Shown here piece by piece: positions 12,001 through 15,000 of a stretch of 64,000 nucleotides of DNA; position 1 is the stretch's first letter, and each line of letters begins with the position of its first letter. Source of the DNA: Escherichia coli. Lineage in GTDB: Bacteria; Pseudomonadota; Gammaproteobacteria; Enterobacterales; Enterobacteriaceae. The position numbers were made by a program. The DNA is taken from assembly GCF_003334765.1 (NCBI RefSeq), contig NZ_QOWT01000001.1; one strand, written 5' to 3'.

Positions 12001-15000
12001 CATGCCGTTAGCCTGATAGTCGCCGAACTGAACTTTTGCTGACTGACGAACCTGCGGTTCGCAATCCGCAGGCGCGCCTGCCGCAATCATGGCCTGACGG
12101 ACTTTTTCTGAGAGAAGAGCCTGAATATTCACCGGAATACCTTACATTGATGAAGCGAGCAAAAATTGCCCGCACCAGTTAAAGAAATTAGGGCGGGAGT
12201 ATACTGCAAATGGCTGTTTTCGTCAGCAACGTGCGCGTGGCGTATTGCCGTTTTCACTATTGCATCAGAAGCGGCGTGAAATCAGCGGTTGGTTGGCACA
12301 GGGCAACAGGGTAAATTAACGCTTTTACTGAAAGACGAAGAGTGATTATGGCGAACTGGCAATCTATCGACGAGCTGCAGGATATTGCATCGGATTTACC
12401 GCGATTTATCCACGCATTAGATGAACTTTCCCGCCGTCTGGGGTTGAATATCACTCCGCTGACTGCCGATCACATTTCTTTGCGTTGCCATCAAAACGCC
12501 ACTGCTGAACGCTGGCGTCGCGGGTTTGAACAGTGTGGCGAGCTTTTGTCAGAAAATATGATCAATGGCAGACCGATTTGTCTGTTTAAATTGCATGAAC
12601 CGGTACAGGTTGCGCACTGGCAGTTTTCTATTGTGGAGCTACCGTGGCCCGGGGAAAAACGTTACCCACACGAAGGTTGGGAACATATTGAAATCGTTCT
12701 GCCGGGTGATCCAGAAACGCTGAATGCCCGTGCGCTGGCATTGCTTTCTGATGAAGGACTCAGCCTACCGGGGATCTCAGTGAAAACCAGTTCGCCAAAA
12801 GGTGAGCATGAGCGATTACCGAATCCGACGCTGGCGGTCACCGATGGCAAAACAACTATTAAGTTTCATCCGTGGTCCATTGAAGAGATCGTTGCCAGCG
12901 AGCAGTCGGCGTAATTAAGGAGTAAAAATGGCATTACTGGAAATTTGCTGTTACAGCATGGAATGTGCACTAACGGCGCAGCAAAACGGCGCAGACAGAG
13001 TTGAATTATGCGCAGCCCCAAAAGAGGGGGGCTTAACGCCGTCGTTGGGTGTACTGAAATCCGTGCGCCAGCGGGTGACGATCCCTGTGCATCCGATAAT
13101 TCGCCCACGCGGTGGTGATTTTTGCTACAGCGACGGTGAGTTTGCCGCCATTCTTGAGGATGTGCGCACGGTCCGCGAATTAGGTTTTCCTGGACTGGTG
13201 ACGGGCGTTCTCGATGTTGACGGGAATGTCGATATGCCACGAATGGAAAAAATAATGGCTGCTGCCGGTCCGCTGGCAGTGACTTTTCATCGCGCCTTCG
13301 ATATGTGCGCTAACCCTTTACATACACTCAATAATCTTGCGGAATTGGGCATTGCCCGGGTACTGACATCAGGGCAAAAATCAGACGCACTGCAAGGTTT
13401 ATCAAAAATTATGGAACTTATTGCCCATCGTGATGCTCCAATCATTATGGCCGGAGCAGGAGTCCGTGCAGAAAACCTGCACCACTTCCTCGATGCCGGA
13501 GTGCTGGAAGTCCATAGCTCCGCGGGAGCGTGGCAAGCCTCACCGATGCGTTATCGTAATCAAGGATTGTCCATGTCATCAGATGAACACGCGGACGAGT
13601 ATTCGCGTTATATCGTAGACGGGGCGGCGGTTGCTGAAATGAAAGGAATCATTGAACGCCATCAGGCCAAATGATTTTTACCGTTGCATCATGTCGCCCA
13701 ATATGATGCTTGCTCGTACCAGGCCCCTGCAATTTCAACAGGGGCCTTTTTTTATCCCTGAACAGTATAAAAAACGAACGATAACCGTGATCTGTTGAGC
13801 GGGTGACAGTGCGCATAGCGTTGTGCTAAAAATATTGTATATATTCACATTAATTATGGGATTTAAATTACTAAAACTGATAAATATATATTCTAAATAG
13901 CAACTGGGTTATTCCTTAGCAATTAATGATTACATTGTAATAAATCATATTCTTTATCGATTGTTTCAGGCAGTGTTGTGCCTAATTATGCAAGCGGTTA
14001 ATTCGTTGTATATTTAATTATACAATGATTTCGGTGTCCAGTAATTTAATTAGAGGAATCTATGCGAGGGAAAAAACGCATTGGGTTATTGTTTTTGCTG
14101 ATAGCGGTTGTGGTTGGTGGCGGCGGGTTATTGCTGGCGCAAAAAGCCTTACATAAAACGTCGGATACAGCATTTTGCCTTTCCTGCCACTCGATGAGTA
14201 AACCTTTTGAGGAATATCAGGGAACTGTCCACTTTTCGAACCAGAAAGGGATACGTGCGGAATGTGCCGATTGCCATATTCCAAAGTCAGGGATGGATTA
14301 TTTATTTGCTAAATTAAAGGCATCTAAAGATATTTATCATGAATTTGTTAGCGGCAAAATAGACAGTGACGATAAGTTCGAAGCTCATCGCCAGGAAATG
14401 GCCGAAACAGTATGGAAAGAATTAAAAGCCACTGACTCTGCAACGTGCCGTAGTTGCCATTCTTTTGATGCCATGGATATTGCCTCGCAAAGTGAATCTG
14501 CGCAGAAAATGCATAACAAAGCACAAAAGGACAGCGAAACCTGTATCGATTGTCATAAAGGCATTGCCCATTTTCCGCCAGAAATAAAAATGGATGACAA
14601 CGCGGCGCATGAGCTGGAAAGTCAGGCCGCTACTTCAGTTACTAATGGCGCACATATTTATCCTTTCAAAACTTCTCACATAGGCGAGCTGGCTACCGTG
14701 AATCCTGGAACCGATCTCACCGTCGTTGATGCCAGTGGCAAACAGCCGATCGTTCTGTTGCAGGGTTATCAAATGCAGGGCAGTGAAAACACGCTCTACC
14801 TGGCGGCAGGTCAACGGCTGGCGCTAGCCACATTAAGTGAAGAAGGTATCAAGGCGCTCACTGTAAACGGGGAATGGCAGGCTGACGAATACGGCAATCA
14901 ATGGCGTCAGGCGTCTTTACAGGGTGCGCTTACCGATCCCGCATTAGCGGACCGTAAACCGCTATGGCAATACGCTGAAAAACTTGACGATACCTATTGC

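Follow-up and report, generated by a model that had tools for sequence, protein, structure and literature searches.

MicL, a sigma-E-dependent small RNA within the 3' region of cutC, in an Escherichia coli genome segment

By its sequence, the interval in the 3' region of cutC in this Escherichia coli genome segment is MicL, an already-known E. coli small RNA (sRNA). The assignment, which agrees with the preliminary description of this DNA, follows from a full-length match to the Rfam MicL model RF02654 together with 100% identity to the K-12 micL locus (b4717). We give a probability of about 97% to the explanation taken as a whole, namely that a sigma-E-driven MicL transcript arising inside cutC is processed by RNase E and represses lpp. 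None of the tests that we ran yielded evidence contradicting it. The present analysis itself observed that the RNA is identical to MicL of K-12, together with the sequence motifs and folds, the complementarity to lpp and the pattern of conservation. Sigma-E dependence, processing, Hfq binding, repression of lpp and the copper phenotype were shown in published work on a sequence identical to this one. MicL was discovered and dissected in 2014 and is curated in Rfam, EcoCyc and RefSeq; our comparative results leave that picture unchanged. E. coli has three sigma-E-dependent sRNAs that bind Hfq, MicL being the third, and the copper sensitivity described for 'cutC' reflects loss of MicL, which leads to an excess of Lpp (Guo et al. 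2014, PMC4102768).

Identity and position of the RNA

The window, meaning the whole stretch of 64,000 nt that was analysed, is the reverse complement of E. coli K-12 MG1655 1,908,194-1,972,193; the two are colinear and differ by 16 substitutions and no indels. No substitution lies near MicL, and positions 13380-13795 are 100% identical to K-12. RF02654, whose gathering score is 56, matches 13446-13753 on the + strand with 381.9 bits (E 2.1e-115), and the match is untruncated, covering model positions 1-308 of 308. The K-12 RefSeq ncRNA micL (b4717) lies at 1958441-1958747, corresponding to window 13447-13753. The surrounding gene order, with yecM upstream, then cutC, then torY from 14062, matches K-12 b1873-b1875. 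MicL occupies the sense strand of the 3' part of cutC: its 5' part consists of the last 226 coding nt of the gene plus the stop codon, and its end is the cutC intrinsic terminator. At this locus the sole difference from MG1655 is cutC Y132H, at window 13321, which precedes the -35 element of the MicL promoter (PmicL) by 92 nt. Natural isolates match window 13300-13800 with 100% identity, which marks the strain as closely related to K-12 but distinct from MG1655. The features of the locus are as follows.

12928-13674, + strand: cutC coding sequence of 248 codons, the host gene of MicL (ORF list; K-12 annotation b1874)
13413-13419, + strand: PmicL -35 element, GGAACTT, in cutC codons M162-E163-L164 (sequence; motif uniqueness and conservation)
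13420-13436, + strand: PmicL spacer of 17 nt, in which nucleotides and amino acids vary freely among genera
13437-13441, + strand: PmicL -10 element, TCCAA, in cutC codons A170-P171-I172 (sequence and conservation)
13446-13753, + strand: MicL primary transcript of 308 nt (Rfam RF02654; Guo 2014 coordinates; K-12 b4717)
13673-13674, + strand: RNase E processing site (literature, with the position derived from the stop codon)
13674-13753, + strand: MicL-S, the 80-nt processed, Hfq-bound active form, in the cutC 3' UTR (Guo 2014, fold and RIL-seq)
13683-13713, + strand: stem-loop A of MicL-S, core stem 13686-13709 (minimum free energy (MFE) fold; its role in positioning RNase E is from Updegrove 2018)
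13711-13722, + strand: MicL-S seed, +38 to +49, UGCUCGUACCAG, pairing with lpp coding positions +16 to +28
13721-13753, + strand: intrinsic terminator common to cutC and MicL (fold and conservation)

The promoter inside cutC

The -35 element GGAACTT lies exactly where the preliminary description had put it. The same description had correctly recognised TCCAA as the -10 element but assigned it to 13438-13442, which reads CCAAT; the true site is one nt to the left and ends 4 nt before the MicL 5' end at 13446. The composite sigma-E motif GGAACTT-N15-17-TCNAA occurs once on the two strands of the window, where 0.02 occurrences are expected from dinucleotide shuffles, and it was present in 2 of 100 shuffled windows. 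No sigma-70-like promoter overlapping PmicL was found in a promoter scan of the site. The sigma-E dependence of PmicL was established by sigma-E overexpression and with a GFP fusion carrying positions -65 to +20, and synonymous point mutations in the -35 and -10 elements nearly abolished MicL (Guo et al. 2014, PMC4102768).

Transcript boundaries, processing and 3' hairpins

Guo et al. (2014, PMC4102768) described a 308-nt MicL transcript that is processed to the 80-nt MicL-S, and the published boundaries of both RNAs fit the present sequence to the base, with starts at 13446 and 13674 and a common end at 13753. Rfam and Guo et al. place the 5' end at 13446 (308 nt), whereas RefSeq places it at 13447 (307 nt). 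The preliminary description had thus picked the right interval for the transcript, but its start near 13449, its end at 13755 and its length of about 305 nt give way to 13446-13753 and 308 nt. The cutC stop codon, TGA, occupies 13672-13674. MicL-S is a processed RNA, being degraded by a 5'-monophosphate-dependent exonuclease (Guo et al. 2014, PMC4102768). RNase E cuts MicL at a position set by tandem 3' stem-loops; the determinants of cleavage lie 3' of the cut, and the sequences 5' of it are dispensable (Updegrove et al. 2018 preprint). In RIL-seq data, Hfq was bound mainly to the processed form.

The 80-nt 3' end is predicted to form two hairpins and has an MFE of -28.8 kcal/mol (z = -5.15), and none of 200 shuffled sequences was as stable. 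The terminator consists of a 9-bp G+C-rich stem with a 9-nt loop (13721-13747) and a T7 tail at 13747-13753. A simple terminator scan missed it, as the scan limited loops to 8 nt and the actual loop has 9. The strong terminator that had been proposed at 13721-13755 is a real hairpin with the correct start, but its T-run ends at 13753. Among 17 genera, the 11 pairs of stem-loop A were paired in 100% of cells, and all changes were of the G-C to G-U type. The 9 pairs of the terminator stem were likewise paired in 100% of cells, and two of them showed compensatory double changes (Franconibacter and Siccibacter). Together, stem-loop A and the terminator were paired in 100% of 329 cells, every change keeping the pair. 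The terminator is also expected to serve as an Hfq-binding module, the binding of Hfq itself being taken from the literature.

Pairing of MicL-S with lpp

Since lpp lies outside the window, the K-12 copy was used for the duplex tests. The preliminary description had proposed to look for pairing with the lpp 5' UTR, which is the wrong part of the mRNA: the target is the lpp coding sequence at +16 to +28. An extended pairing between MicL-S +19 to +49 (window 13692-13722) and lpp +16 to +46 has also been described (Guo et al. 2014, PMC4102768). With the 12-nt seed, RNAduplex reproduced the published duplex, in which MicL-S G39-G49 pairs with lpp C16-C27 and U23 is bulged; it has 11 bp and one bulge, at -16.7 kcal/mol. 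For the 31-nt MicL-S region the RNAduplex energy with lpp was -26.3 kcal/mol, an unexceptional value: z was -2.1, 71 of 2000 shuffles were at least as good, and the duplex ranked 2325 among the 42,646 31-mers of the window. RNAduplex applied to the whole of MicL-S and the lpp 5' region returned an unrealistic structure with large loops (z = -1.4 against shuffles) and was replaced by the local and seed tests.

The complementarity therefore sits where it was published, and calculation alone would not single out lpp. Because the computed duplex energy is unexceptional, the claim of pairing rests on published genetics and on RIL-seq. A 4-nt seed mutant of MicL lost repression of lpp, and compensatory changes in lpp restored it (Guo et al. 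2014, PMC4102768); MicL-lpp chimeras were recovered independently on Hfq by RIL-seq. Within the seed region, GUACCAGGCCCC was invariant in 44 of 45 Enterobacteriaceae loci. All seed variants were C-to-U changes, C42U in 12 loci and C40U plus C42U in three; they occur in Trabulsiella, Kluyvera, Leclercia, Silvania, Pluralibacter, Lelliottia and Kosakonia. If lpp is unchanged in these genomes, they would turn G-C into G-U pairs, with energies of -14.7 and -12.2 kcal/mol, respectively.

Conservation of the promoter and of MicL-S

We compared cutC loci from a CutC scan that took one genome per species, giving 56 loci from Escherichia out to Bacteroidota. Among 20 loci scanned with RF02654, the model was called in 18 of 18 Enterobacteriaceae loci, and no match was found in Morganella or Edwardsiella. 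As cutC codons make up 226 of the 308 positions of the model, Rfam matches in other genera partly reflect homology of the CutC protein, and the RNA-specific parts were therefore tested separately. At the corresponding site, the motif GGAACT[T/A]-N15-17-TCCAA was found in 43 of the 45 Enterobacteriaceae loci and was missing from all 10 outgroup loci; the outgroups encode similar residues by other codons, for example GAG CTG and CCG CTG. Both the promoter and MicL-S were absent from Morganella, Edwardsiella, Limnobaculum and three non-Enterobacterales loci. The only Enterobacteriaceae loci lacking the strict promoter motif were two from Citrobacter amalonaticus (L052 and L010), in which TTGAACT replaces GGAACT at -35 (M162I). 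The cutC frame was interrupted, by a frameshift or early stop, in three assemblies, namely those of Leclercia (L051), C. amalonaticus (L052) and Kluyvera (L054); in L052 the MicL-S sequence is kept downstream of the interrupted gene.

At the level of the protein, conservation was 0.56-0.58 for the spacer codons versus 0.78-0.89 for the hexamer codons. In sliding windows of 15 codons, synonymous diversity fell to 0.35-0.38 around the promoter and nowhere else, the other windows giving roughly 0.43-0.68, and at the -10 codons it was 0.13 versus 0.51 upstream (44 loci). Across 16 other genera, MicL-S had a mean identity to E. coli of 92.6%, with 54 of 80 columns invariant; the mean for the coding body of MicL was 68.9%, with 3 of 76 third codon positions invariant. 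Similarity ended directly past the T-run. The intergenic stretch at 13756-14061, about 300 bp between the MicL terminator and torY, appears A+T-rich by eye and, unlike the invariant MicL-S adjoining it, differs among genera right past the T-run. In the 226-nt body no extra synonymous constraint was detected: diversity was 0.61 versus 0.52 upstream (one-sided p = 0.99 for a less diverse body). Judged from these alignments, the evidence for selection extends to the promoter hexamers and to MicL-S but leaves out the body. The range of MicL appears to be the Enterobacteriaceae, which is consistent with the restricted enterobacterial distribution reported by Guo et al. in 2014 and extends it to more genera.

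The coding body and alternative readings

The Rfam consensus pairs the MicL-S region (13674-13721) with nt 3-15 and 166-204 of the body (13448-13460 and 13611-13649). These long-range helices compete with stem-loop A and cover part of the seed. They could point to a model in which the 308-nt RNA would be an inactive pro-form and the RNase E cut an activation switch that unmasks the seed, beyond mere trimming. The helices were paired in 82% of cells in 17 genera, against 32-54% when the register was slid, a comparison that is biased, since the consensus had been built from E. coli-like sequences. The published overexpression of full-length MicL would be compatible with such a model, since processing takes place in vivo and Hfq is found mainly on the processed form. 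Against this, only one long-range pair showed a two-sided change, the body lacks extra synonymous constraint, and 5' sequences have no effect on cleavage. We therefore regard a masked pro-form as unlikely. The Rfam helices that lie wholly inside the body were also considered and were not supported, as 61% of cells were paired and covariation was no better than in slid controls.

The preferred reading, a MicL transcribed from its own promoter and then processed, was further weighed against a source in the host message. MicL-S might be produced mainly by RNase E from the yecM-cutC mRNA, as a 'type II' 3' UTR sRNA, with the internal promoter playing a minor part. The location of the cleavage determinants 3' of the cut would allow this (Updegrove 2018). 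The PmicL point mutant, however, nearly removes both MicL and MicL-S, and both RNAs are induced by sigma-E (Guo 2014, PMC4102768); the strong conservation of the internal hexamers across genera also argues for the promoter as the route under selection. A predominant origin from the mRNA is accordingly very improbable.

Least tenable of all is the absence of any separate RNA gene, with the motif a by-product of CutC residues (M-E-L ... A-P-I) and the 3' region simply the cutC terminator. In its favour, the hexamers do fall on residues that are fairly well conserved, E-L and P persisting even in outgroups, and the body is free of additional constraint. Against it, other codons are used for E/Q-L and P in Morganella, Edwardsiella and Limnobaculum, which have no motif, whereas 43 of 45 Enterobacteriaceae loci keep the exact hexamers; synonymous diversity falls at the hexamer codons; and the 47 nt of 3' UTR before the terminator stem are nearly invariant and would be needless for a terminator alone. 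Northern blots also speak against the idea, which was already refuted by the PmicL-GFP fusion and by the synonymous PmicL mutant that abolishes MicL (Guo 2014, PMC4102768).

Other features of the window

Seven of the differences from K-12 are missense: yebF D37G, torZ H605R, torY V29A, cutC Y132H, flhA G593S, flhB F124C and cheB S237A. One is nonsense, in torZ, and two further substitutions lie in tar (window 1029 and 1113). The nonsense change affects torZ (15187-17616, + strand), encoding a TMAO reductase just downstream of cutC-torY, where a G-to-A substitution at 15983 creates an internal stop codon at 15982-15984 (W266* relative to K-12). Because of this stop codon, torZ is a pseudogene in the strain. 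The same torZ allele is found, 100% identical, in natural isolates such as strain Y5, where PGAP flags it as a pseudogene with 'internal stop'.

Two further RNA loci of the window matched Rfam models. SraC/RyeA (48950-49094, - strand) and SdsR/RyeB (48991-49090, + strand) gave full-length matches of 175 and 114 bits, respectively; they are a known pair of overlapping antisense sRNAs and match K-12 ryeA and sdsR, between pphA and yebY. A 43-nt match to ES036 was found at 17689-17731 (- strand), with 45.5 bits against a gathering score of 37.6. The genes cmoB and torZ converge here, with 164 bp separating their 3' ends, and the element lies within this gap; it corresponds to K-12 1954463-1954505 on the cmoB strand, a site at which K-12 RefSeq has no feature. 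The element is probably the cmoB terminator or a fragment of the cmoB 3' end.

Discussion

In the proposed mechanism, envelope stress or entry into stationary phase would lead sigma-E RNA polymerase to start at the promoter in cutC codons 162-172, and transcription from 13446 to the cutC terminator would yield the 308-nt RNA. The two 3' hairpins would then direct RNase E to cut at the cutC stop codon, releasing the 80-nt MicL-S. Pairing of its seed with lpp codons 6-10 would block translation and bring about decay of the mRNA. With less Lpp, the cell's most abundant protein, the load on the outer membrane would be relieved.

MicL is a textbook example of how a regulatory RNA can lie concealed in a protein-coding gene and have its phenotype wrongly given to the protein. 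That phenotypes ascribed to cutC may belong to MicL, as had been suggested, was already concluded by Guo et al. in 2014 and is established. All but one of the complete E. coli genomes (5,425 of 5,426) carry the MicL sequence, and micL was annotated under the match in none of the 10 PGAP-annotated records among the matches listed. In the one PGAP record that was inspected (NZ_CP025903.1, locus L060), the annotation has yecM, torY and a cutC whose product is given as 'copper homeostasis protein CutC', but micL is missing. In the K-12 record, micL is annotated and the protein is named 'PF03932 family protein CutC'. That the RNA would be invisible to ORF-based annotation, as had been supposed, thus holds for PGAP genomes, which carry cutC only, but not for the K-12 reference or Rfam. 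Since PGAP omits micL and keeps an outdated CutC name for a sequence that is nearly universal, phenotypes from knockouts or Tn-seq insertions in the 3' third of cutC in PGAP genomes can still be misread.

The MicL locus described here has the same sequence, position in cutC, promoter, 308/80-nt boundaries, hairpins, lpp seed and terminator as K-12 MicL (RF02654, b4717), with no difference in RNA or promoter. Among other sRNAs derived from 3' UTRs, DapZ has its own promoter inside the 3' end of dapB. Like MicL, both DapZ and the pair CpxQ and ArcZ have a terminator in common with a protein-coding gene; DapZ resembles MicL in its own internal promoter, and CpxQ and ArcZ resemble it in their maturation by RNase E. 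MicL combines both routes, since its promoter lies far upstream, 226 nt inside the coding sequence, and its processing is obligatory. Sensitivity to RNase E is lower for MicL than for ArcZ or CpxQ, and in MicL tandem 3' stem-loops set the site of cleavage (Updegrove 2018). The other two sigma-E-dependent Hfq-binding sRNAs of the species are MicA and RybB, which, like MicL, are Hfq-dependent, stress-induced repressors of very abundant outer-membrane proteins (Guo 2014, PMC4102768). MicA and RybB are free-standing intergenic genes that together have about 31 targets, whereas MicL is embedded in a coding sequence, undergoes processing and essentially targets lpp alone (Guo 2014, PMC4102768).
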